64,000 nucleotides of DNA. Source: Acidobacteriota bacterium. GTDB taxonomy: Bacteria > Acidobacteriota > UBA890 > WLXD01. The translations under genes were made by a program, and so were the position numbers. The stretch is taken from contig CAXWPH010000012.1 of the NCBI GenBank assembly GCA_963666055.2, forward strand, positions 288,001-352,000. Direction: 5' to 3'. This document shows positions 34,565-47,655 of the stretch, piece after piece. Each line of letters begins with the position of its first letter. Positions within the stretch are counted from its first letter, which is position 1. The notes below the pieces were generated by a model. The model was given only the letters and a program-made list of their open reading frames with translations. It was not told the DNA's origin and ran no database searches.

Positions 34565-35371
34565 GTGACCCTTACTCGCGACCTCGCCCTCGCCGAGACA
34601 ATCGCGCGCGAGGCGTCCGAGATCCTGATGCGCTACTACCGAGGCGACTATCGGGTCGAGGCCAAGGCCGGTGGGGAGCCCGTTACCGAGGCCGACCGCG
34701 CCGCCAACGAGCACATTGTCGCTCGACTGCAGGAGCACTTCCCCGACGATGGCATTCTCGCCGAGGAATCTGCTGACCCGGCGGCGATCGTCGGCAAGCG
34801 GCGCGTTTGGATGGTGGACCCGATGGATGGCACCAAGGAGTTCACTCACCACCTAACCGAGTTCGCCGTGATGATCGGACTAGTGGTGGAGGGCACACCA
34901 GTGCTCGGCGTCGTCGCACAGCCCGCGGAGGAGATTGTTTACCGCGGCATCGTCGGCGAGGGGGCGGAACGCGTGCACCCGGATGGCGTCGATACGATGC
35001 GCGTCGGAACGACCAGCGAGCTCGCCGAGCTGACCTTGATCTGTAGTCGTTCGCACCTCCCCGAGATCGTCGAGCGCATGAAAGACGAGCTCGGCATCTC
35101 GCGCATGCTGCAGTCCGGCAGCGTCGGCCTGAAGATCGGCAAGATCGGTACCGGGGTTTGCGACCTCTATTTGCAGCCGGCATCCGGCACGAAGCTCTGG
35201 GACGCCTGCGCTCCGGAGGCGATTCTGCACGCCGCCGGTGGCCGCCTCACCGACTTCGACGGCCACCCGATCGACTATGACCCTCAGGACATCGTGAATC
35301 GCCGCGGCCTGCTGGGGAGCAACGGCACCCGCCACGACGACTTGGTGCAACGACTGCGCGGCTACTTCTAG
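34565..35371 (+). CDS. cysQ: 3'(2'),5'-bisphosphate nucleotidase (PAP phosphatase, IMPase family)
   Basis: PVTEAD, LAEE, WMVDPMDGTKEF, SRSH, GSVGLK, WDACA; directly upstream of sat/cysC. Confidence 0.85.
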   Translation: MTLTRDLALAETIAREASEILMRYYRGDYRVEAKAGGEPVTEADRAANEHIVARLQEHFPDDGILAEESADPAAIVGKRRVWMVDPMDGTKEFTHHLTEFAVMIGLVVEGTPVLGVVAQPAEEIVYRGIVGEGAERVHPDGVDTMRVGTTSELAELTLICSRSHLPEIVERMKDELGISRMLQSGSVGLKIGKIGTGVCDLYLQPASGTKLWDACAPEAILHAAGGRLTDFDGHPIDYDPQDIVNRRGLLGSNGTRHDDLVQRLRGYF

Positions 35372-35385
35372 CAGGGTGCTGAAGG
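35368..35385 (+). repeat. Degenerate MITE-A-like end on the cysQ TAG stop
   Basis: CTAGCAGGGTGCTGAAGG resembles CTAGCAGGCCGTGCTGAAAG. Confidence 0.45.
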
Positions 35386-35439
35386 AACTCCGGTGGGTCG
35401 GCGCGTGGGTCTGGCTGGCCAGATCAAGGGCGATCGGAC

Positions 35440-35478
35440 TTGCATTAGGTTCTAATTGGGTTACGATTAGGACCCAAT
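35440..35478 (+). promoter_or_regulatory. Sigma70-like promoter overlapped by three 11-bp tandem repeats (putative RHH operator)
   Basis: TTGCAT-N16-TACGAT; repeats ATTAGGTTCTA / ATTGGGTTACG / ATTAGGACCCA in an AT-rich island. Confidence 0.55.
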
Positions 35479-35512
35479 CAGTGCCCTGCTACAGCTCATT
35501 CCGTCGCTGCCC

Positions 35513-35731
35513 ATGCCCGACCGTGTAAGCATCAAGATTCCCCGGCCGCTCTACAATCGGCTGCAGCGGGTCATCGACGGGTCGGGCTTCAGCTCGGCCA
35601 CCGACTTCATCGTCTACGTGCTTCGCGACCTGGTCGGGAGCCTGGAACCGGAGGCATCGTCGTCCTCCGATCTCAGCCAGGACGAGCTCGTGGCGATCCG
35701 CAAGAAGCTAGAAAACCTCGGATACCTCTAA
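35513..35731 (+). CDS. CopG-like ribbon-helix-helix protein with C-terminal LGY tail
   Basis: VSIKIPRPLY..L......GFSSATDFIVYVLR; ends IRKKLENLGYL. Confidence 0.8.
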   Translation: MPDRVSIKIPRPLYNRLQRVIDGSGFSSATDFIVYVLRDLVGSLEPEASSSSDLSQDELVAIRKKLENLGYL

Positions 35732-36900
35732 TGATCAAAGCTCACGGCGGGCGCCTCATCGAGCGCTTCGCATCAGCAACCGGACACACCGAGTGGCTCG
35801 AGCGTATCGACAAGCTCCCTGCCGTCACCATGAACCGCCGAGAAACCTCCGATCTGGAGATGATCGCCACCGGTGCCCTGAGCCCGCTCGAGGGTTTCAT
35901 GGGGCGCGACGACTACGAGCACGTATGCGCCCACGGCCGCTTGCCCGGCGGCCTGCCGTGGACGATACCGATCACGCTGGCGGTCGATTCTTCGACCGCG
36001 GCCGCCGTCGGGATCGGCGACCCGGTGGCGCTCAAGGGGCCCGACGGCACGCTACACGGTGTGCTCGAGTTGGCCGACGTCTACCAGCCCGACAAAGATC
36101 GCGAGGCGCTCCAGGTACTGCTGACGAATGACGACGCGCACCCCGGAGTCGCATACTTACGGTCGACCGGCGACACCTACCTGGGCGGCAGGATCACGCT
36201 GCTCCAGCGCCCGCATCACGCCAGCTTCGAGAGCTCGCGGCTCGATCCGCGCGAAACCCGTGTGCTGTTCAAGGCCAAGGGCTGGAACAGCGTCGCCGCC
36301 TTCCAGACCCGAAACCCGATTCACCGCGCCCACGAGTACCTGCAGAAGTGTGCTCTCGAACTGGTCGACGCACTGTTGATTCATCCGATCATGGGCGAGA
36401 CCAAGTCGGACGATATCCCGGCCGACGTGCGGCTCGAGTGCTACCAAACGCTGCTGCACAACTACTACCCGAAGGCACGCGTTGCACTGTCGATTCTGCC
36501 GGCGGCGATGCGCTATGCCGGCCCTCTTGAGGCCATCTTCCACGCCATCGTAAGAAAGAATTACGGCTGCACGCACTTCATCGTCGGCCGTGACCACGCC
36601 GGCGTCGGCGGCTACTACGGCACCTACGATGCGCACACCATCTTCGAGAAATTCGAAGCGCTCGAGATCGGCATCACGCCGCTCTTCTTCGACCACGCTT
36701 TCTACTGCCACGCTTGCCAGAACATGGCGTCACAGAAGACGTGTCCGCACGACAAGGAACAGCACGTGTTCCTGAGCGGCACGAAAATCCGCGACATGCT
36801 GGCACGCGGTGAAGAGCTGCCAAAGGAATTTACCCGGCCCGAGGTAGCGGAGATCTTGCGTCGTCACTATCAGGGGTCGACTGCCGGCGCCGTGGTGTGA
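35731..36900 (+). CDS. sat: Sulfate adenylyltransferase
   Basis: SPLEGFM, FQTRNPIHRAHEY, MRYAGP, HFIVGRDHAG, LSGT. Confidence 0.97.
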   Translation: MIKAHGGRLIERFASATGHTEWLERIDKLPAVTMNRRETSDLEMIATGALSPLEGFMGRDDYEHVCAHGRLPGGLPWTIPITLAVDSSTAAAVGIGDPVALKGPDGTLHGVLELADVYQPDKDREALQVLLTNDDAHPGVAYLRSTGDTYLGGRITLLQRPHHASFESSRLDPRETRVLFKAKGWNSVAAFQTRNPIHRAHEYLQKCALELVDALLIHPIMGETKSDDIPADVRLECYQTLLHNYYPKARVALSILPAAMRYAGPLEAIFHAIVRKNYGCTHFIVGRDHAGVGGYYGTYDAHTIFEKFEALEIGITPLFFDHAFYCHACQNMASQKTCPHDKEQHVFLSGTKIRDMLARGEELPKEFTRPEVAEILRRHYQGSTAGAVV

Positions 36901-36975
36901 CCGGTCGGTGAGGATACTAGCGCCAGCGCGTCGGCAATCCGGCGCCGGCCGAGGCACCACAAGGAGTTTGCTCAG

Positions 36976-37575
36976 ATGAAGGGCTTCACGCTCTGGTTTA
37001 CAGGGCTTTCGGGCTCCGGCAAGTCGACGCTGGCCACGGCAGTCGAAGAGGTTCTCCTCGAACGCGGTCTGCGGGTCGAGATCCTCGACGGCGACGAGGT
37101 ACGGACGAACCTGTCCAAAGGACTCGGCTTCTCGAAGGAAGACCGCGACACCAACATCCGCCGTATCGGCTACGTCTGTAATCTGCTGAGCCGCAACGGC
37201 GTGGCGGCGGTCTCCGCGGCCATTTCTCCCTATCGAGAGATCCGCGACGAGTTACGCGGATCGATCGAGAACTTCGTCGAGGTCTACGCGCGCTGCAGTA
37301 TCGAAGAGCTCGCACGACGGGATCCGAAGGGGCTATACAAACGAGCCCTGGCAGGTGAAATCCCCAATTTCACAGGCGTTTCCGATCCCTACGAGGAACC
37401 GGTCAACCCCGAGGTCGTCTGCGATACGGAGAAGGAGACGCCGGAGGAGAGCCTGGAAAAGATCGTGCGAAGCCTCGAGCTCATGGGGTACATTCCGCCC
37501 GCCGAGGACCACCACACCAGTCCGGAACAAGAAGAGGCGATCCGCGCACGGCTAGAATCGCTCGGATACCTCTGA
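36976..37575 (+). CDS. cysC: Adenylyl-sulfate kinase with extra C-terminal LGY tail
   Basis: [36 protein letters not shown]; ends [11 protein letters not shown]. Confidence 0.96.
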
Positions 37576-37594
37576 TCGCTCGCCGGGGGCGCCA

Positions 37595-38887
37595 ATGTCG
37601 CGCAGCAAGCGACTCTGTCTGATCGGGCTCGACGGAGTACCGGAACAGCTGCTGCGACGCCTTGCCGACGACGGCGTCATGCCACGCTTGGCGGAGCGCA
37701 TCGCCGGCGCACACCTACGCTCGATGCGCGCCTCATTGCCGGAAATCTCCTCGGTGAGCTGGTCGAGCTTCATGACCGGGGCGGGTCCCAGCGAGCATGG
37801 GATCTACGGCTTCACCGATATCGAGCCTCAGAGCTACGGGCTCACGTTTCCGAGCTTTGCCGATGTGCGCATTCCAACCTTGTGGGACCGGCTCGGCCGC
37901 CGCGGCGTAACCTCGGTAGTGGTGAATCAGCCGGCAACCTATCCAGCTCGCTCGATTCCCGGCGTCATGGTCTCGGGCTTCGTTGCAGTGGATCTCACTC
38001 GCGCGGTCAAGCCACTACGGTGGCTGGGTCCGTTGCGACGCATGAACTACCGCATCGATATCGATACCGCACGCAGCCGCCAGGACCACGATTGGCTCAT
38101 GCGCGACCTGCGGCAGACGCTTCGAACAAGGCGCGAAGCGGTAATGCGGCTCTGGGACGAGGTCGATTGGCGCTTCCTGCAAGTCGTGGTTACCGGCACA
38201 GACCGCCTCTATCACTACCTCTGGGATGCGGTCGAGGACACGCGGCATCCGCGCCACCAGCAAACACTCGACTACCACCACGATGTGGACACCTTGGTGG
38301 GCGAGATATGGGACCGGTTCGCGGCCGAAGAGACCGATCCGGAGTCCTGCTTCTGGATGCTTTCGGACCACGGTTTCTGCGCCATTCGCCAGGAGGTGCA
38401 GCTGAACGCAGCTCTGAAGAACCTGGGCTATTTGACCCTCGGGGCCGAGGCGCCGGTAGATCTGACCTCACTCGAGCCAACGAGCCGAGCGTTCGCGCTG
38501 GATCCGGGGCGCATCTATCTGAATCGATCCGAACGGTTCGGGCGTGGCACCGTCGCCGAAAGCGATGCGCCGGCGCTCAAATCGGAGATCGCCAACGCGA
38601 TCAAAGAGCTGCGGTATGATGGGCAACGGGTCGTCCGCGAGGTGTTCGATGCTGCGGACATCTACGAACAGGGGCCTTGCTCCGCGCGCGGTCCCGACCT
38701 TGTCGCTCTCGCTTTCCCGGGGTTCGACCTCAAGGCGTCCCCGGCGGCGAGTGAGGTATTCGGACGCAGCGACCTCGTGGGTATGCACACGTACGACGAC
38801 GCCTTCCTCTTGACACCCCACCCCATCGAAGGCGACCTCTGGATCGGCGAGATCGCCGCGCATATTGAACAGGAGTACGACAAGTGA
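37595..38887 (+). CDS. AlkP-superfamily (NPP/phosphodiesterase-like) enzyme, predicted cytoplasmic
   Basis: IGLDG, SSVSWSSFMTG, DRLYH, SDHG, GMH; no signal peptide. Confidence 0.85.
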   Translation: MSRSKRLCLIGLDGVPEQLLRRLADDGVMPRLAERIAGAHLRSMRASLPEISSVSWSSFMTGAGPSEHGIYGFTDIEPQSYGLTFPSFADVRIPTLWDRLGRRGVTSVVVNQPATYPARSIPGVMVSGFVAVDLTRAVKPLRWLGPLRRMNYRIDIDTARSRQDHDWLMRDLRQTLRTRREAVMRLWDEVDWRFLQVVVTGTDRLYHYLWDAVEDTRHPRHQQTLDYHHDVDTLVGEIWDRFAAEETDPESCFWMLSDHGFCAIRQEVQLNAALKNLGYLTLGAEAPVDLTSLEPTSRAFALDPGRIYLNRSERFGRGTVAESDAPALKSEIANAIKELRYDGQRVVREVFDAADIYEQGPCSARGPDLVALAFPGFDLKASPAASEVFGRSDLVGMHTYDDAFLLTPHPIEGDLWIGEIAAHIEQEYDK

Positions 38888-41004
38888 GCACGCCGTCCCG
38901 GTTCGTGTCGCGCCTCGTCCTGGCCGTGCTGGCCGTCCTGGCGTACCCGCATGTCGCCGATGCCTACGTTGGTCCCGGAGCCGGCTTCGCGTTTATCAGC
39001 AGCTTCCTGGTGCTGTTCTCGACCATTCTGGCAGTCATCGCCTCGTTGCTGATCTGGCCGTTCCGCACCTTGTGGCGGGCGATCACGCGCCGTACGAAGG
39101 TGGCGCCCAAGATCCGGCGCCTCATCGTCGTCGGGTTCGACGGACAGGATCCGCAGTTAACCGACCGCTTCATGGCCGAAGGCAAGCTGCCGAACTTCAA
39201 GAAGCTGGCCGACATGGGCTGCTACAAGCCATTGAAGACAACGTTCCCGTCGATCTCTCCGGTAGCCTGGTCGTCGTTCTCAACCGGCGCTCACCCTGCG
39301 CGGCACAACATCTACGACTTTCTTGACCGCGACCGCCGCACATATTTGCCGGTGTTGTCATCGACCAAGATCGGTTCGGTCGATCGATTCCTGAACCTGG
39401 GACCGTTTCGTATTCCGCTCGAAAAACCGGAGCTCCGACTGCTACGCAAGTCGAAGCCGTTCTGGAGCGTCCTCGGCGAGCACAATATTTGGAGCACCGT
39501 GCTTCGGGTGCCGATCACCTTCCCACCCGACCGGTTCTATGGCGCCCAGCTCTCGGCGATGTGCGTCCCGGACCTTCTCGGAACGCAGGGCACGTTCCTG
39601 CTCTTCACCACCCGGCCCGAGAGCACCAAGTTCAAAGAGGGCGGCCAGCGAGTGCCGGTAACCATGGAGGGCGACCGCGTCACGGGGACCTTGCTGGGAC
39701 CCGAGAATATCCTGCGCAAAGGCAGCCCACCGCTGGAGTTACCGATCGTCGCCGAGCTCGACCGTGGCGCCAGCCGCGCGCGTGTCGCTTTCGGTTCCGA
39801 GAGCGTTGACCTGACCCTCGGCGAGCTTTCCGACTGGGTACCGCTGACGTTTCCTGCGGCGCCCGGCATCAAGGTCCGCGGCATCGGGCGCGTCATGATG
39901 ACCGAGATGAACGGCGACTTCTCCATGTACATGACGCCCATAGCGCTCGACCCGGAGCGACCGGCGATGCCGATTTCCCACCCCAACTACTACTCCGTGT
40001 ACCTGTCGAAGATGCAGGGAAAGTACTCGACGCTAGGGCTTGCCGAAGATACTTGGGCACTGAACGAGAAGGTGATCGACGACCGCCACTTCAAGGAACT
40101 GACGTTCGACATCGACGACGAGCGCAAGGACATGTTTTTCGCCGCGATGGAGCGGTTGCGCCGCGGCTGCTTGGTGTGCGTGTTCGACGCCACCGACCGC
40201 ATCCAGCACATGTTCTGGCGCTACATCGACGAGGGACATCCGGCCGACGATGGCAGCCAGGACGACTGTCGCGACACCATCGAGGAGCTCTACGTACGCA
40301 ACGACAAGCTCGTCGGTGAGGTGTTGGAGAGAGTCACCGAGGATGACCTGCTGATGGTGCTATCAGACCACGGCTTTACCTCATTCCGCCGTGGCCTGAA
40401 CCTCAATCGGTGGCTCCTCGACAACGGCTACCTCGCTCTCAAGGACGGCGCCGACGGCACCACCGAGTGGCTCCGCGCAGTCGACTGGTCGCGTACCAAA
40501 GCCTACTGTCTCGGGCTGTCGGGCATGTTCTTCAACATCAAGGGCCGCGAGTCGCAGGGCATCGTCGAACGCTCTGAAGTCGATTCCCTGAAAGCGGAGA
40601 TCGGCGCCAAGCTCAAAGGGCTGCGCGACGAGGAGAACAACGAGGTGGCCATCGTCGAGGCGTTCGATACCGCCCAGCTTTACCGGGGTCCGTATCTCGA
40701 GAACGCTCCCGAATTCATCATCGGATACAACCGCGGCTACCGTACTTCCTGGGATTGCGCCACCGGCGTAGTCGATGCGCCGCTATTCGAAGACAACGTG
40801 AAGGCGTGGAGTGGCGACCACTGCGTCGACCCACGGCTCGTTCCGGGAGTGTTGTTCTGTAATCGCGCCATCGACGTCGACGATCCTGCGCTCATCGACA
40901 TCGCCCCAACGGCGCTACAGCAGTTCGGTGTCCCGACTCCCAAGTACATGGACGGCCGACCGCTCTTCAAAGAGGGCGCCGAGGCCGATTCGGCTGGGTC
41001 TTGA
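38884..41004 (+). CDS. AlkP-superfamily (NPP-like) enzyme with N-terminal membrane anchor
   Basis: Hydrophobic segment-AYVGPGAG-TM; VGFDG, SPVAWSSFSTG, DRIQHMFW, SDHG, WSGDH. Confidence 0.85.
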   Translation: MSTPSRFVSRLVLAVLAVLAYPHVADAYVGPGAGFAFISSFLVLFSTILAVIASLLIWPFRTLWRAITRRTKVAPKIRRLIVVGFDGQDPQLTDRFMAEGKLPNFKKLADMGCYKPLKTTFPSISPVAWSSFSTGAHPARHNIYDFLDRDRRTYLPVLSSTKIGSVDRFLNLGPFRIPLEKPELRLLRKSKPFWSVLGEHNIWSTVLRVPITFPPDRFYGAQLSAMCVPDLLGTQGTFLLFTTRPESTKFKEGGQRVPVTMEGDRVTGTLLGPENILRKGSPPLELPIVAELDRGASRARVAFGSESVDLTLGELSDWVPLTFPAAPGIKVRGIGRVMMTEMNGDFSMYMTPIALDPERPAMPISHPNYYSVYLSKMQGKYSTLGLAEDTWALNEKVIDDRHFKELTFDIDDERKDMFFAAMERLRRGCLVCVFDATDRIQHMFWRYIDEGHPADDGSQDDCRDTIEELYVRNDKLVGEVLERVTEDDLLMVLSDHGFTSFRRGLNLNRWLLDNGYLALKDGADGTTEWLRAVDWSRTKAYCLGLSGMFFNIKGRESQGIVERSEVDSLKAEIGAKLKGLRDEENNEVAIVEAFDTAQLYRGPYLENAPEFIIGYNRGYRTSWDCATGVVDAPLFEDNVKAWSGDHCVDPRLVPGVLFCNRAIDVDDPALIDIAPTALQQFGVPTPKYMDGRPLFKEGAEADSAGS

Positions 41005-43022
41005 GTGCGCCTCGCGGCGGCCGGCCAACGATGCGATCCGTCATGCTGTGGAGCGTTCTGCTGGTCGTGTCGACGAGCAGCGCCTGCGGCAGCAGCTCGA
41101 GATCAGACGGACCGAACGTCATCGTGCTGGGGATAGACGGCCTCGACTACACCCTGACGCGGGAGCTTATCGACGCCGGCCGCTTGCCGAACTTCAAGCG
41201 GCTGGCGGACTCGGGCGCCTTCGGGCCTCTGGAAACGTCGCTGACTCCGCAGAGTCCGGTGGCCTGGTCGAACTTCATTACCGGCATGGACTCCGGCGGC
41301 CATGGGATCTACGACTTCCTGCATCGTGACCTGGAGCGTGATCCGCCGCTGCCCTTCGGTTGGCCCTATCAGGCGATGACCAAGGAGACTCCGGTGGGCC
41401 GGTCGCTCACGCTTGGCGGCTGGTCCTTCCCTCTCAGCGGCGGCGACATCCAACTGGCGCGATACGGCACACCGTTCTGGCAATTGCTCACCGACAACGG
41501 TATCGACAGCACTCTCATACGCATGCCCGCCAACTTTCCGCCCGTCGGCGCCGGTACCCGCGAGCTCTCGGGCATGGGGACCCCGGACCTCGGCGGCACG
41601 CCCGGTGAGTTCACGTTCTTCTCCACCGATCGCCGCCAATTCATGAAGACCGACGTATCGGGCGGGCATATCTACCCCGCCGACATCATCGATGGCGTGT
41701 TCAACGGAACCCTGTACGCCCTCACCGACAATCCCTTCACGCTGGAAGAGGGCGATGCGGTCGCAGCCGACTTCGAGGTATTCATCGATCCCGATAACCC
41801 CGTTGCAAAGATCGTAATCAACGACCAAGAGCTCATCCTGCAGGAAGGCGAGTGGAGCCCTTGGGTAAGTGCCGACTTTGATCTCGTGCCTTACGTAATG
41901 TCGATATCGGGCTCGGTGCGCTTCTACCTCAAGTCGGTACGTCCGGACTTCGGGCTTTACATCACGCCGATTCAGATCGATCCTCTCAACCCCGGGTCGG
42001 CAATCTCGCACCCGGACTCGTTCGCCACCGAGCTGGGCAACGCCACCGGCCGCTACTACACACAGGAGATGCCACAGGACACCAAGGCGCTCCAGTGGGG
42101 CGTCTTCGACCTCGACGAGTACCTGACGCAGGTCACGCTCACTCGCGCCGAGACGACGGCGCAGTACAAGTATCTCCTCGAGAACTGGACCGGCGGCTTT
42201 CTGTTCTCCTATTTCGGGAGCGCCGACCAAATCTCGCATGTCATGTGGGGCTTGACGCGCGACCCCGAGCACCCTGCATACGTGGCCGAGAGTCACGACC
42301 AATACCGTGACGTCATTCCGAGCTTGTACGAGGAGTTCGACGCGCTGGTCGGCTACACGCTGGATCGCATCGCCGACGATACCCTGTTGGTCGTCATGTC
42401 GGACCACGGGTTTGGCAGCTGGCGCCGATCGTTCAACCTCAATACGTGGCTGCACGATAACGGCTATATGGCACTGCAGCGTCGCACGCGCCTACCGATT
42501 CGGGAGTTCTTCGCCGGCGTCGACTGGGACGCCACTCAGGCGTACAGCGTCGGCATCAGCGCCCTGTACTTGAACATGCGCGGCCGTGAGCCGCAGGGCT
42601 TGGTGGCGCCCGGCGACCGCGACGAGTTACTCCTTCAGCTCGAACAAGATTTGTTGGCGACCGTGGACCCGGCCACCGGTGAGCCGGCCATCACCCGGGT
42701 GTTCATTCGTGAACGCGATTTCCACGACCGCGGCCACTTAGAGATAGGGCCCGACATCATCGTCGGCTACGCACCGCATGTGCGCGGTTCTGGCAACGGC
42801 GCTCTCGGCGGGCTGGCAGCGGAGTTCATTGTCGACAACACCGCCGATTGGTCAGGCGACCACATCTGGGACCCGACGGCGGTTCCGGGTGTGCTGCTGA
42901 CCAACCGCGCGCTGATACGGCCGGCGTCGTCGCTGCAGAACCTGGCAGCATCTCTGCTCGCCGAGTACGGCATCGACGGCTTCCGGGACGGCAGCACCCC
43001 AGTCACGGTTGAGACAAATTGA
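41001..43022 (+). CDS. AlkP-superfamily (NPP-like) enzyme, predicted lipoprotein
   Basis: SSAC lipobox-like; LGIDG, SPVAWSNFITG, DQISH, SDHG, WSGDH. Confidence 0.85.
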   Translation: MSAPRGGRPTMRSVMLWSVLLVVSTSSACGSSSRSDGPNVIVLGIDGLDYTLTRELIDAGRLPNFKRLADSGAFGPLETSLTPQSPVAWSNFITGMDSGGHGIYDFLHRDLERDPPLPFGWPYQAMTKETPVGRSLTLGGWSFPLSGGDIQLARYGTPFWQLLTDNGIDSTLIRMPANFPPVGAGTRELSGMGTPDLGGTPGEFTFFSTDRRQFMKTDVSGGHIYPADIIDGVFNGTLYALTDNPFTLEEGDAVAADFEVFIDPDNPVAKIVINDQELILQEGEWSPWVSADFDLVPYVMSISGSVRFYLKSVRPDFGLYITPIQIDPLNPGSAISHPDSFATELGNATGRYYTQEMPQDTKALQWGVFDLDEYLTQVTLTRAETTAQYKYLLENWTGGFLFSYFGSADQISHVMWGLTRDPEHPAYVAESHDQYRDVIPSLYEEFDALVGYTLDRIADDTLLVVMSDHGFGSWRRSFNLNTWLHDNGYMALQRRTRLPIREFFAGVDWDATQAYSVGISALYLNMRGREPQGLVAPGDRDELLLQLEQDLLATVDPATGEPAITRVFIRERDFHDRGHLEIGPDIIVGYAPHVRGSGNGALGGLAAEFIVDNTADWSGDHIWDPTAVPGVLLTNRALIRPASSLQNLAASLLAEYGIDGFRDGSTPVTVETN

Positions 43023-43033
43023 CGGTGCAGGCG

Positions 43034-43068
43034 CTAGCTGGCCATGGTGAGAGCGTGGTGGGTCTGGC
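43034..43068 (+). repeat. Degenerate MITE family A terminal remnant
   Basis: CTAGCTGGCCATGGTGAGAGCGTGGTGGGTCTGGC vs CTAGCAGGCCGTGGTGAAAGTGTGGTGGGTCTGG. Confidence 0.65.
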
Positions 43069-43125
43069 AAGTGGCACTTGCGGGCAGGGGCAAGAAGCAA
43101 CGACAACGCTAACAGGAGACGAAGG

Positions 43126-43320
43126 ATGTTCGGAGGCGGCAAGATCAAATTGGACAGTGGCCTACTGAACCGTGTCAGGAAGTATGCGGACATAGCCGGC
43201 TACTCCTCGGTCGAGGAGTTCATTACCTATGCGCTCGAGAAGGAGCTCGCCGTCCTCGAGGAGGCCGACTCCGAGGAAGAGATCCGCAAGAAGCTCCAGG
43301 GGCTCGGCTACATTTCCTGA
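43126..43320 (+). CDS. Second small RHH-like protein with LGY tail
   Basis: KIKLD..LL.RV......GYSSVEEFITYALE; ends IRKKLQGLGYIS; AGGAG RBS. Confidence 0.75.
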   Translation: MFGGGKIKLDSGLLNRVRKYADIAGYSSVEEFITYALEKELAVLEEADSEEEIRKKLQGLGYIS

Positions 43321-43341
43321 CCTGACAACGAGCACATCACG

Positions 43342-44181
43342 ATGAACGCCATTCTCGGCGCTGTGAACGGGCTGCTGCGCCCCCTGTTCGACCTGATGCT
43401 GCTGCCCTTTCGGCAGCTACACCCGATGATCGGGCTGACCATCGTGTCGCTGGGGTGCGCGGTGCTCATGCTGCTCGGATACCGCGCCACCTCCAATCAG
43501 CCGGCGGTTGAGCGCGTCAAACGCAGGATCGCCGCCGGCCTGTTCGAGATCCGCCTGTTCAACGACGACATCTTGGCGATCCTACGTGCTCAGGGCGGCA
43601 TCCTGCGCAATAACATGACCTATCTCGGCCTGAACCTGGTGCCGATGGTGTTCATGATGCTGCCGTTTGTCCTGGTCATTGCCCAGCTGCAGTTCCACTA
43701 CGGATATCGAGGCCTGACGGTTGGCGAGCCGACCGTTCTGCAGGTCAGCCTCGGGGACGGACTAGCCGCCAGCAGCGCGCCAGAGGCCGAGGTCACCTTG
43801 CCCGCGGGCCTACGGCTCGACAGCCCGCGGGTGTGGATGCCGGCGCGAAATCAGCTCGCCTGGCGGATCGTCGCCGACAGCCCAGGTGACTTCGAGGTGC
43901 AGATCGAAACCGCCGGCCAACGCGTCACCAAGCGGATCGTGGTATCCGACGCTGTCGTGCGTCGATCGCCCTATAGGCTGAAGCCCGGTTTCGTGAACAC
44001 GCTGCTGTACCCGGCCGAGCCCTCCCTGCCCAGCGACGGGATCGTCATCGAGATCAAGGTCAACTACCCGACACGCGCTGTCGGTCTTTTTGGTTTCGAG
44101 ACCGACTGGCTGATCGTCTTTTTCCTCTTGACGATGTCCCTCGCCTTCGCTCTCAAGGGCCGCTTCGGTGTAACCATCTAG
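43342..44181 (+). CDS. Membrane protein resembling DUF106/EMC3/TMCO1 (Oxa1 superfamily)
   Basis: Amphipathic N-helix, TM1, basic coiled hairpin, Met/Pro-rich TM2 (LVPMVFMMLPF), beta-rich loop domain, terminal TM starting WL..FF. Confidence 0.55.
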   Translation: MNAILGAVNGLLRPLFDLMLLPFRQLHPMIGLTIVSLGCAVLMLLGYRATSNQPAVERVKRRIAAGLFEIRLFNDDILAILRAQGGILRNNMTYLGLNLVPMVFMMLPFVLVIAQLQFHYGYRGLTVGEPTVLQVSLGDGLAASSAPEAEVTLPAGLRLDSPRVWMPARNQLAWRIVADSPGDFEVQIETAGQRVTKRIVVSDAVVRRSPYRLKPGFVNTLLYPAEPSLPSDGIVIEIKVNYPTRAVGLFGFETDWLIVFFLLTMSLAFALKGRFGVTI

Positions 44182-44189
44182 TGGCCTGC

Positions 44190-45605
44190 CTACTGCAGGT
44201 AGCCGAGGTCGCGCAAGCGCGCGATGTCTTCCGGCGATACGGTCCGCGCCTGGCGTTCGCTCGGCATGTTCTCTAACAGAGTAGCCAGCACGTCGCGCAT
44301 CTGATCGCGCCGATCGGCGAGCTCTGGCGCGGCGATCAAGTTGACAAGCTCGTACGGGTCACTGCGCAGGTCATAGAACTCGTCGTCGCCCTCTTCGTAG
44401 AGAAGGTACTTGTACTCGATGTCCTGGACCGCGTACCGCTCGCCGGGCTCGTAGTTGCCGCGCTGCTGCCGCCGCATCGAGGCGTCCTCGTAATAGCTGC
44501 GCTCGGCGAAGGCAAACCATCCGGCATCGCGTGGTCGGCCACCGCCCAGATACTGCGTGAGAGATCGGCCCTGCGTGGGCATGATCTGGTTTGGGGTCAG
44601 CTCAAAGATCGCCGCCACCGTCGGCAATACGTCGACATGTTGAACGACGCGCTGGTGTACGCGAATCCCCACCGCGCCGTCAGCGCTCCAGAACAGCAGC
44701 GGTACCCAGAGCTGGGCGTTGTAGATCTGCTTGGAATGCCCGAACCAATCATGAGCGCCGAGTCCCTGACCATGATCCGAGGTGACAATCCAGAGGGCCT
44801 CGTCGTTGAGACCGGTGGCGTCGAAGTGCGCAAACAAGCGCGCCAGCTGCCGGTCCGCATACATGATCTCGGCGTCATAAGCGGCCACATCGTTGCGCAC
44901 GACGCTATCCTCGTCGACGGCCGGAATGCCACGGCTTGCCAGCAGATCACGATACGCCTGCTCGCCATACTCGGCGATCATGCCCTCGACCTCCTCGAGA
45001 ACCTCGTACGGCGGCTGAAGCGGCTTGTGGGGGTCGTACACATGGACCCAGAGAAAGAACCTCTCTCGACCGTCAGCGACCGCCTCGTCGACCCAGGCCA
45101 ATGCACGATCGACAGTGTCGCCCGCGGCGCGGTACAGCTTGCGCCCCCCCTCCGTCTGGCGATCGACCCGATGCTGATCCCAAACCTCGAAACCCTGCCC
45201 AACGTTGCCCCCCAGCGCCGCGTCCGTGCTCACGAACGCCGCCGTCGTGTACCCCGCTGCACCTAGTAGCTCTGCCATCGTCTCGAACTCCTCGTCGAGA
45301 ACCAGACCGTTGTTCTGAACGCGGTGTTGCACTGGATACAGCGACGTGAACAGCGACGCATGCGAAGGCTTCGTGGTCGCGGAATGCGCATAGGCGCGCG
45401 TGAACAGCGTCCCTTCCGCAGCCAGTCGATCCAGGAACGGCGTCGTGGCGATGGGATAACCAAAGCTCGACATGTGGTCGGCGCGCAAGGTATCGACAGT
45501 GATCAGCACCAGTCGCTGCGGTACCGCCATCTCCGGAGTGCTCGCCGAGCAGGCTGCAACCAATCCCGCCAGCGCCATGGTTGCCGCCACGGCCACCCTT
45601 GTCAT
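44190..45605 (-). CDS. Sulfatase-like lipoprotein (Thr at the nucleophile position) with LGY tail
   Basis: VAAC lipobox, ITVDTLRADH, TTKPSHASLFT, HVYDPH, TSDHG, DP.E..N; ends RLRDLGYLQ. Confidence 0.85.
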   Translation of the reverse strand: MTRVAVAATMALAGLVAACSASTPEMAVPQRLVLITVDTLRADHMSSFGYPIATTPFLDRLAAEGTLFTRAYAHSATTKPSHASLFTSLYPVQHRVQNNGLVLDEEFETMAELLGAAGYTTAAFVSTDAALGGNVGQGFEVWDQHRVDRQTEGGRKLYRAAGDTVDRALAWVDEAVADGRERFFLWVHVYDPHKPLQPPYEVLEEVEGMIAEYGEQAYRDLLASRGIPAVDEDSVVRNDVAAYDAEIMYADRQLARLFAHFDATGLNDEALWIVTSDHGQGLGAHDWFGHSKQIYNAQLWVPLLFWSADGAVGIRVHQRVVQHVDVLPTVAAIFELTPNQIMPTQGRSLTQYLGGGRPRDAGWFAFAERSYYEDASMRRQQRGNYEPGERYAVQDIEYKYLLYEEGDDEFYDLRSDPYELVNLIAAPELADRRDQMRDVLATLLENMPSERQARTVSPEDIARLRDLGYLQ

Positions 45606-46306
45606 TCCCCGTCCTCACCCAAGCTCATCGACTCACCGGAGTTGAGATAGCCATACAGCACCGCCGCAACCACGCCGCCGAGCAGCGGCCCCAGCCAGTA
45701 TACCTAGTGAGAAGTCCAGTACCCGGCCGCGAGCGCCGGCCCGAAGGCGCGCGCCGGGTTGAGCGCGGCGCCCGTCAAGGGACCGCCGACAAGCACGGCG
45801 GCGCCCAGCGTGGCACCGATGACCAAGCCGTGCACATGCTGCGGAGCGCGCCGGGCAGCCGCCATCTGCAGGACTACGAACACCAGCACGAGCGTCAGGA
45901 TCATCTCCAGGAAAACGCCCGTCCCGACCTCCACGCCGGGTCCCAGCGCCGGCGCGCCAAGGTGCACAGGCTGCCACACGTCGGCGCCGAAAGTCGCTGC
46001 CAGCATCAGGCCGGCAACGAGCGCTCCCATTAACTGGGCCGCGAAGTAAGCGTAGGCCCGCGACGGATCGATCGCTCGCACGAGCAGCGCCCCCAACGTT
46101 ACCGCCGGATTGACGTGCGCCCCGGACACGTGTCCGAGCGAGCTGACGATGGCCGCCAACGTCAGCCCCTGAGCCAACGCTATCCCCACGATGCCGACCT
46201 CGCCGCCACTGTAGGAGTCGGTACAGATCGCCGCCGCCGCCATGAATGTGAGGACGAACGTCCCAACACCCTCCGAGACCACGCACACGGCGAGCTCGCG
46301 GCTCAT
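45602..46306 (-). pseudogene. MIP/aquaporin with in-frame TAG at 45704-45706
   Basis: SGAHVNPA and LNPAR motifs; after TAG the frame continues VYWLGPLLGGVVAAVLY to a TGA overlapping the sulfatase ATG. Confidence 0.8.
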
Positions 46307-46362
46307 CCGAGCCCCGAGCAGGCGGCGCCAGCTCACCTCCATCTGCTCAACCCTCGCAAGGA

Positions 46363-47655
46363 TCAGCGGGTGCCGCTGACAACGATCGACATGGCGGGAC
46401 CTGGTAGCTCCACCCGTGTGCCGTCGGCATAAAGGGCCGCGGCGCCGTCGCCGCTAATCTCGAGCGCCGCCGGCCGGCCTTCGTACACGGAGGCGAGCAT
46501 GCCAGTGTCGATCATGAACAGCCGGCCGTCGAACCTAGAGACAATGCCGTCGGCCTGCGGCGTGTGCCCGATGACCATCGCCCGCACCTCCAGGGCGCCG
46601 AGAAGCGCCTCGAGCACCGCGGCGTGATCCGGATCCGACAAGGTTGCCAAGCCGCGAAACCAAAGAGGGCCGCGCTCGGCCAACACGTACCACCGCTGAA
46701 TGCGAAAGAGCGACTCATACCAGGCCCTCTTGTCGGCCTCAGAGTCGCCACTCGCACTCGAAAGCTCCGGCAGACCTGTTTTGGCCCGGTCGAGCCACTC
46801 GAGCCCACCGGTCTGCTGCGTCGCGCCCCGGATAACTTCCCTCAACTCCCCGAACGAGGTCACCAGACGAGCCCCGATCAGCGCCTCCCTATACGCGTCA
46901 AGGGCGACAATCTCGTCGGCAACCCGCTGATTCAGAGACTCGAGCCCTCGGGCGGAGTGCTCGGGCGCCACACCAGCGTGCATGAAGGCAATGCCGTCGA
47001 TCGTGGCAGACAATGGCAGGGTCCTGAGCCAGGCGCCGTAGGATCCACCCGGTCCAACGGCGCGCACGTACGCAATGCGTTCGGCCGACGTGTTCTCCTG
47101 CCAGCTGTTGCGCAGATCGCGGCGCCGCCGGGACGACATCCGACCGGTCGACGTTGACTCGATTACGCGCTGCAGCTCGTCCCAGGCGCTATCGAGAACG
47201 TCGTCCGCATCGTCGTCGAAAAACTGCGCCATCTGCTCGTCGGTCGCGTCGCGAAACTCGCCGATCAGGTTCATGACCTCGTGGTTGCCGAGCAACACGA
47301 CCACCTCGCCACCTGAGTCGGGCGCCTCCCCTTGCAGCCGCATCAACAGGTCCATCACCTGGCGGACGGCGGCGCCGCGGTCCATGAAGTCGCCCGTCTG
47401 AACGAACACGGTGTCGCCGCCACTCCACTTCAAATCAGCATCGATGATGCCAGCAACCCGGAGCACCGAGACCAACTCGTCGTAGGCACCGTGGATGTCG
47501 CCCACCGCGATGATGCGACGCGACTCGGTCTCGTAGCCGGCAATCGGAGCCGTGGTTTGGGGCGCCGGGCTCGTACCCAACGCTGGCGTCAGCAGCATCG
47601 CGAAGCCGAGAGCCAGAGCGATGGTCGTAGTTCGCGTCAGCATCATTCGGGGCAT
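46363..47655 (-). CDS. Secreted calcineurin-like metallophosphoesterase (Shewanella-like phosphatase type)
   Basis: GDIHG, GDFMDRG, GNHE, FMHAG, GPLWFR, GHT, IDTG. Confidence 0.88.
   Translation of the reverse strand: MPRMMLTRTTTIALALGFAMLLTPALGTSPAPQTTAPIAGYETESRRIIAVGDIHGAYDELVSVLRVAGIIDADLKWSGGDTVFVQTGDFMDRGAAVRQVMDLLMRLQGEAPDSGGEVVVLLGNHEVMNLIGEFRDATDEQMAQFFDDDADDVLDSAWDELQRVIESTSTGRMSSRRRRDLRNSWQENTSAERIAYVRAVGPGGSYGAWLRTLPLSATIDGIAFMHAGVAPEHSARGLESLNQRVADEIVALDAYREALIGARLVTSFGELREVIRGATQQTGGLEWLDRAKTGLPELSSASGDSEADKRAWYESLFRIQRWYVLAERGPLWFRGLATLSDPDHAAVLEALLGALEVRAMVIGHTPQADGIVSRFDGRLFMIDTGMLASVYEGRPAALEISGDGAAALYADGTRVELPGPAMSIVVSGTR

Follow-up and report, generated by a model that had tools for sequence, protein, structure and literature searches.

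This report concerns a locus at positions 34,565 to 45,605 of a 64,000-nucleotide stretch of DNA (hereafter the window; contig CAXWPH010000012.1, positions 288,001 to 352,000 of the forward strand, assembly GCA_963666055.2) from an Acidobacteriota bacterium of the lineage UBA890, WLXD01. Ten open reading frames (ORF) were confirmed there, at the positions and in the order given by an earlier interpretation made without database searches (the sequence-only reading): a cysQ-like gene, RHH1, sat, cysC, AlkP1, AlkP2, AlkP3, RHH2, a membrane-protein gene, and a sulfatase-like gene that meets the others head-on. The conserved unit is a cassette of four of these genes, AlkP2, AlkP3, RHH2 and the membrane-protein gene, which encodes an Oxa1-like protein. 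The cassette is real, sharply conserved, not found in print and, to judge from the genes that accompany it, tied to sulfation in this lineage. The sequence-only reading had not noted that several of the proteins share an LxxLGY tail, that AlkP2 and AlkP3 are predicted to lie on opposite sides of the membrane, that the membrane protein belongs to the Oxa1 family, or that the head-on gene encodes a Thr nucleophile. The features of the locus are as follows.

34565..35371, plus strand: CysQ-like phosphatase; PF00459 above cut-off, top NCBIfam match TIGR01331 below cut-off
35444..35481, no strand: imperfect repeats of 11-bp period with an inverted pair, upstream of RHH1; candidate RHH1 operator
35513..35731, plus strand: RHH1, 72 aa, LxxLGY tail (Tyr71); hhalign match to the RHH2 family
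35731..36900, plus strand: Sat, ATP sulfurylase; NF003166 and TIGR00339, both above cut-off
36976..37575, plus strand: CysC, APS (adenosine 5'-phosphosulfate) kinase with an appended acidic LxxLGY arm (Tyr198); TIGR00455 above cut-off
37595..38887, plus strand: AlkP1, soluble NPP-like enzyme (Ser52); PF01663, no hydrophobic segment
38884..41004, plus strand: AlkP2, signal peptide, transmembrane (TM) segment and NPP-like domain (Ser125); PF01663
41001..43022, plus strand: AlkP3, exported lipoprotein-like paralogue of AlkP2; start at TTG 41001 or ATG 41031; PF01663
43126..43320, plus strand: RHH2, 64 aa, LxGLGY tail (Tyr62); ORF readable from 43078
43342..44181, plus strand: three-TM protein of the Oxa1 superfamily (DUF106/EMC3-like); profile match to MJ0480 (PDB 5c8j)
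44190..45605, minus strand: exported sulfatase-like lipoprotein, Thr78 nucleophile, LxxLGY tail (Tyr469); PF00884

The cysQ-like gene and RHH1 were separated by 141 bp, and the distances that followed were -1 (RHH1-sat), 75 (sat-cysC), 19 (cysC-AlkP1), -4 (AlkP1-AlkP2) and 21 bp (RHH2-membrane gene). AlkP2 and AlkP3 overlapped by 4 bp, given TTG 41001 as the AlkP3 start, and the converging stops were 8 bp apart. Scans of the locus for sigma-70 promoters and terminators were at or below chance level. The cysQ label of the sequence-only reading agreed with the top match (TIGR01331), but at 176 bits the match fell under the cut-off of 228.8; the putative role of the CysQ-like enzyme is likely the removal of PAP (3'-phosphoadenosine 5'-phosphate). 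Single-sequence family scans (Pfam, NCBIfam) gave no match for RHH1, RHH2 or the membrane gene, and the two small proteins, earlier labelled RHH outright, were therefore graded as RHH-like only.

Conservation was assessed in a phylum sample of 251 related genomes, with thresholds chosen for this analysis; genome G023 was counted in the tallies of 251, 180 and 169 genomes and excluded from the 72 hairpin-tier genomes described below. The Oxa1-like gene was present in 71 of the 251 genomes, and AlkP2 marked the same 71 and none of the other 180. TM-type AlkP2 (E <= 1e-180) occurred in 68 genomes, all with the Oxa1-like gene, and the remaining three had a split or partial AlkP2. In the best 80 of 246 loci across species genomes, which were labelled by homology and some of which end at contig edges, the neighbours of the Oxa1-like gene were RHH2 (79/80), AlkP2 (77/80), AlkP3 (75/80) and a P-loop sulfotransferase (63/80), followed by sulfatase-like genes (19/80), sat or a sat-cysC fusion (17/80), cysQ (17/80), stand-alone cysC (6/80) and AlkP1 (3/80). 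The linkage to sat and cysC that the sequence-only reading had proposed to look for was thus found in a minority of loci, but the NPP-like families were tied to PAPS (3'-phosphoadenosine 5'-phosphosulfate) chemistry by neighbourhood, co-occurrence and fusion. By record title the cassette loci were mostly from Acidobacteriota, with single records from Myxococcota, Eiseniibacteriota and Gammaproteobacteria. APS kinase was matched in 68 of the 71 cassette genomes vs 84 of the 180 others.

AlkP1 and the sulfotransferase shared no locus (8 vs 18 of 40 loci; 3 vs 63 of 80). In the 71 cassette genomes, the sulfotransferase only was present in 35, AlkP1 only in 18, both in 14 (the source genome included) and neither in four; one or the other was thus present in 67 of 71, and the four genomes lacking both compare with 12 expected if the two were independent. 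A full-length match to the tailed CysC was found in 35 genomes, 32 of them also with AlkP1, and the three without AlkP1 had sat, a Thr-type NPP-like gene and a tailed cysC. Conversely, 20 AlkP1 genomes had no tailed-CysC match; those examined had a CysC-RHH-LGY fusion, RHH1 before sat, or no tail that could be found. AlkP1 without the cassette occurred in 20 genomes; in most of the eight examined it was grouped with RHH1, tailed CysC, armed enzymes and a PHP-domain protein as a soluble module, and several such modules also included Wzx-type flippases and glycosyltransferases. From these patterns AlkP1, with the tailed CysC, appears to be a candidate loader that replaces the P-loop sulfotransferase.

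Fusions joined the same parts. CysC was fused to the whole RHH-LGY unit at five loci in two families. In a survey of the best 120 long sulfotransferase homologues, 72 contained an NPP-like domain (64 as AlkP-LGY-...-ST, seven as ST-AlkP2, and one fragment; ST, sulfotransferase), and three of the 120 combined APS kinase, ST and a terminal LGY arm. The AxA↓Y cleavage site was kept inside the chain in all six ST-AlkP2 fusions inspected, which suggests selection for a free N-terminal Tyr.

AlkP1, AlkP2 and AlkP3 scored 108, 105 and 94 bits on PF01663 (cut-off 23), and all three contained the S-x-V-(A/S)-W-S motif and the metal ligands that the sequence-only reading had described. The six ligands were invariant across aligned orthologues of AlkP1 (n = 9), AlkP2 (n = 31) and AlkP3 (n = 25), and the nucleophile was Ser in 9/9, 30/31 and 24/25 orthologues (63/65 overall; Thr in the other two). 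The enzymes resemble NPP and phosphonoacetate hydrolases (PF01663) in the two-metal ligand set and the position of the nucleophile, and differ from NPP and PhnA in the Ser nucleophile, a Trp four residues later, Phe in place of Asn, and large insertions. The Asn in question, from the HGIxxN motif, was replaced by Phe in 65 of 65 sequences and kept in ENPP1, PhnA and the genome's own NPP; we take its role to be contact with a phosphoryl oxygen. Single-sequence searches of the PDB gave no match for AlkP1 or AlkP2, and profile matches were weak. A putative sulfo-Ser intermediate in these NPP-like enzymes is plausible.

AlkP2 started with a signal peptide, followed by Tyr28-Val-Gly-Pro-Gly-Ala-Gly (Tyr28 codon at 38965-38967), one long TM helix and a basic patch, an arrangement that places the predicted catalytic domain inside and Tyr28 as a predicted free N-terminus outside. 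Y[VI]GPGAG directly followed the predicted cleavage site in 30 of 32 strong AlkP2-labelled matches, chosen from the match list of 40 loci; one of the other two had YAGPGAG, and the last was an exported, mislabelled AlkP3. Leaders of AlkP3 orthologues were of the lipoprotein, Tat-like or Sec type. AlkP2 and AlkP3 were 37% identical over 624 aa and formed sister clades (SH-aLRT 100; quick tree of 34 rows). The sequence-only reading had all three AlkP proteins using PAPS or APS in parallel; exported AlkP3 would be unlikely to meet cytoplasmic PAPS, which makes three parallel users unlikely. A fourth NPP-like protein (C15:199565-201886, 773 aa; contigs of the assembly are cited as C plus a number) had a long N-terminal region and ended in an LGY arm, with a Ser in or close to the nucleophile position. 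At three further loci, a soluble AlkP2-like enzyme with no TM segment preceded two genes, one NPP-like with an LGY tail and the other sulfatase-like with no terminal arm.

RHH1 matched the RHH2 family with 97% hhalign probability, and RHH1 homologues preceded sat or cysC modules in other lineages. RHH-like clusters carried putative CopG names in the Atlas (nearest RHH_1 cluster at 0.86), and the RHH2-family profile gave weak matches only in the PDB, among them NikR at E = 1.6. In the tail of RHH2, L57, G59, L60, G61 and Y62 were invariant in 30 sequences. The repeat at 35444-35481 contains inverted arms at 35452-35461 and 35472-35481, with a tandem score of p = 0.055 here; upstream of RHH1, repeats of 11-bp period reached p < 0.01 in 4 of the 14 other rows compared (4 of 15 with this locus counted), and two of the four share one stretch. 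RHH1 is likely a regulator or a carrier of the sulfate-activation genes, as judged by its motif and its position.

The profile of the membrane protein, built from 73 of 120 listed homologues, matched archaeal MJ0480 (PDB 5c8j) at E = 1e-10, and PF01956 was matched by 29 of the 73 members at E <= 1 (best 5e-5). Many homologues are named DUF106 at JGI. The protein has a three-TM core with a coiled coil after TM1, as in the Oxa1 superfamily, and a separate YidC is encoded in the same genome. It resembles MJ0480 over TM1, the coiled coil and TM2; unlike MJ0480, it is bacterial, has a large extracytoplasmic insertion, is tied to one enzyme cassette and coexists with YidC. It is a candidate conduit.

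A C-terminal LxxLGY[ILVM] ended 15 of the 41,201 ORF of the genome vs 0.6 expected, and four of the 15 lie in the locus: RHH1, CysC, RHH2 and the head-on gene. Sulfatase-like matches longer than 400 aa numbered 30 in the genome, 19 with a Thr nucleophile, nine of the Cys type, one unaligned and one true NPP. The arm was found on 18 of the 19 Thr-type proteins (11 terminal, seven internal; the 19th is a shortened protein) and on none of the nine Cys-type proteins, the unaligned row or the NPP. The Thr-type ORF with no arm (C12:21055-22653) diverges directly after DHG and is probably truncated or frameshifted. The head-on gene passed PF00884, but T-K-P-S-H (residues 78-82) replaces C-x-P-x-R and the formylglycine motif (C/S-x-P-x-R) was not found; a role as a true sulfatase was rejected on account of the Thr nucleophile. 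Its similarity to NCBIfam EptA and CptA was weak and far below the cut-off. FGE-family genes were present in the genome, serving the Cys-type enzymes, and four related Cys-type sulfatases (C12:428147, C12:436586, C15:1316971, C6:213348) had odd ligand motifs (DNQP; SDQG for SDHG).

Armed Thr enzymes (E <= 1e-70) were matched in 95 of 169 genomes with an AlkP2-family match vs 3 of 82 without, and by group in 54 of 71 cassette genomes, 34 of 72 hairpin-tier genomes and 7 of 25 other genomes with an AlkP2-family match. The arm also occurred on proteins like arylsulfate sulfotransferases (ASST). The ASST-like gene of the source genome (C15:2143223-2144477) is split by a frameshift. A TM anchor and an LxxLAY arm are encoded by the part upstream of the break, and genomes of the same genus matched the gene from end to end. 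In 103 full-length sequences among 120 homologues of this gene, N-terminal LxxL[GAPS]Y was present in 95 (0.6% in shuffles), and the arm Tyr was invariant in 103/103, with a variable preceding residue (GY 62, PY 24, AY 6, SY 3). Armed ASSTs were found in nine cassette, six hairpin-tier and five other genomes. Thr-type sulfatase-like proteins with the LGY arm are likely acceptor-side enzymes, and the head-on protein, one of 18 armed paralogues in the genome, is a candidate acceptor-side transferase by its motifs; the sequence-only reading had treated the sulfatase-like gene as peripheral.

The genome (5.73 Mb, 95.7% complete) contained one Sat-type and one CysC gene among its ORF. Sat and CysC make PAPS. 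The sequence-only reading found no cysH or sulfite reductase in the window, and none was found genome-wide either at this completeness, with positive controls in 14/14 and 11/14 genomes; PAPS is thus probably spent on sulfation, and an assimilatory role was rejected since no PAPS/APS reductase and no sulfite reductase was found. The same reading noted that no P-loop sulfotransferase was present, which stood for the locus itself but was rejected for the genome, where contig C2 had a PF00685 match (C2:146272-147027). This gene, a member of the cassette-linked family, is an orphan with no sulfur genes around it; it matched PF00685 and not PF13469 in the genome search, and its protein scored on both in hmmscan. 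The family profile gave only weak matches in the PDB. A sulfotransferase elsewhere that accounts for the use of PAPS had been named beforehand as an objection, and the C2 gene sustains it in part, as a member of a family that neighbours 63 of 80 cassette loci.

The CysC arm was kept in 13 aligned homologues. The native end helix of CysC (LELMGY; window 36976-37575) resembles the appended arm, which may have originated by duplication of that helix; apparent tails on Sat-CysC fusions were the native end helix only, and were rejected as appended arms. At eight loci where cysQ was absent, a PHP-domain gene followed the tailed cysC, and we assume that this gene may encode a PAP phosphatase.

A complex of AlkP2 (residues 48-672, mature numbering) and two copies of RHH2 was modelled. 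The score was 0.73 vs 0.04 for the best control, contacts were at least 93% consistent between runs, and partner pLDDT was at least 75. Among solved pairs 116 of 157 attain the scoring mark, and among mismatched pairs 2 of 215, though these figures apply only approximately to this job. The modelled interface comprised the entire RHH2 tail (55-64) and F119, P202, G206-T210, T363, W596, W615 and C620 of AlkP2, of which W615 and C620 flank the metal ligand H619 in the sequence. Mean conservation of the AlkP2 interface was 0.79 vs 0.65 overall. PDB sequence-search matches included no comparable solved complex. RHH2 is predicted by the model to bind AlkP2 with its tail near the rim of the active site.

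The preferred reading, given an even chance of being right, is that the cassette and the PAPS-making unit form a sulfo-tyrosine relay across the inner membrane. Sat and CysC produce PAPS, and the CysQ-like enzyme likely clears PAP. A loader, either the C2 P-loop sulfotransferase or AlkP1 with the tailed CysC, would sulfate Tyr62 in the LxxLGY arm of RHH2, the candidate cytoplasmic sulfuryl carrier. The Ser of AlkP2, with binding predicted and chemistry inferred, would accept the sulfuryl group and hand it to Tyr28 at the processed N-terminus of the same protein, and the groove of the Oxa1-like protein would serve as the passage for the short N-terminal tail, the weakest step. Exported AlkP3, as proposed from paralogy, would catalyse the same reaction in the opposite direction and so charge the LGY arms on exported Thr sulfatase-like and ASST-like enzymes, which would finally sulfate envelope glycans or proteins. 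The reading draws on genes, motifs, linkage, fusions and invariant tyrosines, from which we infer the sulfate chemistry itself. A bolder form, in which the Oxa1/EMC3-family protein is a channel for shuttling sulfo-Tyr and not an insertase, and LxxLGY a universal swinging arm for activated sulfate (and perhaps other groups in lineages that lack PAPS) attached to APS kinase, the small RHH proteins, NPP-like enzymes, Thr-type sulfatase-likes and ASSTs, is put forward tentatively and is rather doubtful. Some form of sulfuryl transfer, by this relay, by a lipid carrier or with the arm as a docking device only, is highly probable.

Several observations weigh against the relay. A sister AlkP2/3 subfamily is exported and has an inserted TM hairpin (sequence read in five genomes, with the same split match pattern in two more); by score tier it occurred in 72 genomes, and neither the Oxa1-like gene nor the sulfotransferase was present in any of the 72. 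An APS kinase match was found in only 39 of them (22/54 of those with no AlkP1; background 34/96), and 21 hairpin-tier genomes had armed Thr enzymes and no APS kinase match. Arms can thus be served without the cassette or PAPS, and the arm system is broader than both and may have other groups as cargo. Hairpin-subfamily genes stand alone, adjoined M23 or S41 peptidase genes at three of four annotated loci, and gave no clue to a donor. Of the 71 cassette genomes, 17 had no armed-Thr match at the strict cut-off, and 14 had both candidate loaders; 11 of the 20 genomes with armed ASSTs had no cassette. The sampled genomes are related, so the counts overstate independence. In the modelled complex the named contacts included neither the nucleophile Ser98 (ORF residue 125) nor the metal ligands, and those resolved best involved the RHH body and not the tail; the model thus supports binding and not catalysis. 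The operator-like repeats upstream of RHH1 in some relatives indicate that one or more of the armed proteins may have a regulatory role. Moving the sulfuryl group from an aryl sulfate to an alkyl (Ser) sulfate and back to a Tyr is also energetically uphill.

Two rivals retain sulfuryl transfer. AlkP2 could instead sulfate a membrane lipid that the Oxa1-like protein scrambles and AlkP3 unloads, with the N-terminal Tyr peptide as a docking tag. The TM hairpin of the sister subfamily sits at the hydrophobic loop of AlkP2/AlkP3, which suggests a membrane-surface substrate, and lipid scrambling is called general for insertases in the title of a preprint (10.1101/2023.09.01.555937). This proposal is unlikely; it does not explain the free N-terminal Tyr or a cleavage site kept even in ST-AlkP2 fusions, and no lipid-synthesis gene was recurrent in the labelled loci. 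It is similarly improbable that the LGY peptide is an arm for docking or oligomerisation only, with AlkP1 and AlkP2 using PAPS or APS directly through sulfo-Ser and CysC docked for channelling. Docking would suffice for a tail on CysC and on a probable regulator, the modelled complex shows binding and not chemistry, and tailed CysC tracks AlkP1 (32 of 35 genomes); yet Tyr is the sole invariant arm residue in the ASST-likes, which have an unrelated fold, and docking would leave exported AlkP3 with no donor and the linked P-loop sulfotransferase with no role.

The two others, both very unlikely, dispense with sulfuryl transfer. In one, the arms carry a phospho-type group, such as a lipid head group, in the fashion of LtaS and EptA, and the sulfate genes supply a cytoplasmic branch of their own. 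Such chemistry would be in keeping with the NPP-type two-metal sites and the Thr nucleophiles, with the weak EptA/CptA similarity of the head-on gene (far below the NCBIfam cut-off) and with the 21 hairpin-tier genomes with armed enzymes and no APS kinase match; against it stand the sulfotransferase, adjacent at 63 of 80 loci and fused to AlkP2, the APS kinase in 68 of 71 cassette genomes, and the arms on ASST-like enzymes. In the other, the AlkP proteins are hydrolases, or a sensing or salvage module for sulfate esters or nucleotides, the Oxa1-like protein is a dedicated insertase and the RHH-like proteins are regulators. This would fit the PF01663 assignment, the operator-like repeats ahead of RHH1 in some relatives, and the short N-out tail and single TM of AlkP2, presumably those of a typical insertase client. 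The replacement of the NPP/PhnA HGIxxN Asn by Phe in 65/65 sequences argues against hydrolases and the housekeeping YidC against a dedicated insertase, and co-selection with PAPS synthesis would be left unexplained in a genome where assimilation genes were not found.

No description of the cassette or the arm was found in the open literature, a coverage that excludes subscription journals and supplements. The nearest parallel to the head-on gene is Agl30/Agl31 (VNG1056C/VNG1057C) of Halobacterium salinarum, AlkP-superfamily sulfatase-like proteins that, according to the available part of PMC11980604, are needed for glycan sulfation and sufficient for it heterologously. This genetic evidence for sulfotransferases favours the proposal of the sequence-only reading that AlkP-fold proteins act as transferases. 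Like the head-on protein, Agl30/Agl31 are sulfatase-like with a C-terminal LxxLGY-type peptide (from a manual reading of the cloning primers listed in Table 1, PMC11980604); unlike the cassette, the available part of that paper includes no arm, carrier, NPP-like pair or Oxa1 protein, and the donor is not named in it.

In DltB/DltX/DltD and PatA/PatB, an acyl group leaves a cytoplasmic donor or carrier, moves by way of an invariant terminal Tyr to a Ser enzyme outside, and then reaches an envelope polymer (PMC12148441, in the part available). The cassette shares with these shuttles an invariant Tyr on a terminal peptide beside a Ser enzyme. The shuttles differ in their acyl cargo, MBOAT and SGNH folds and FXYXXF motif, with none of these families among the genes of the locus, and the cassette in its NPP-like enzymes, its Oxa1-family protein, its two different Tyr motifs and sulfate as the presumed cargo. 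ASSTs are described in the available part of PMC13426309 as PAPS-independent ping-pong enzymes that use aryl sulfate donors and sulfate Tyr-containing peptides, with natural roles poorly understood. The ASST-like subfamily found here carries the same Tyr arm as the AlkP-type proteins on a different fold, and its copy in the source genome is frameshifted.

The relay would bear on how the envelope is sulfated outside the cytoplasm with PAPS made inside. It would let many exported sulfatase-like enzymes add sulfate to the cell surface and would give a bacterial member of the Oxa1 insertase superfamily a new job. If its bolder form is true, a very large class of annotated sulfatases would be envelope sulfotransferases, and a natural donor would be named for the ASST subfamily and for Agl30/Agl31. 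By implication, counts of sulfatases overstate degradation capacity, since 19 of the 30 sulfatase-like proteins in this genome have Thr, which cannot form formylglycine. The cassette also names specific residues, Tyr62 of RHH2, Tyr28 and Ser125 of AlkP2, and the arm tyrosines. Two further genes, not seen as recurrent neighbours, lie upstream of the head-on gene (window 45704-47655). One is an ORF of the aquaporin family, which at 212 aa is short for that family, and the other encodes a calcineurin-like phosphoesterase.

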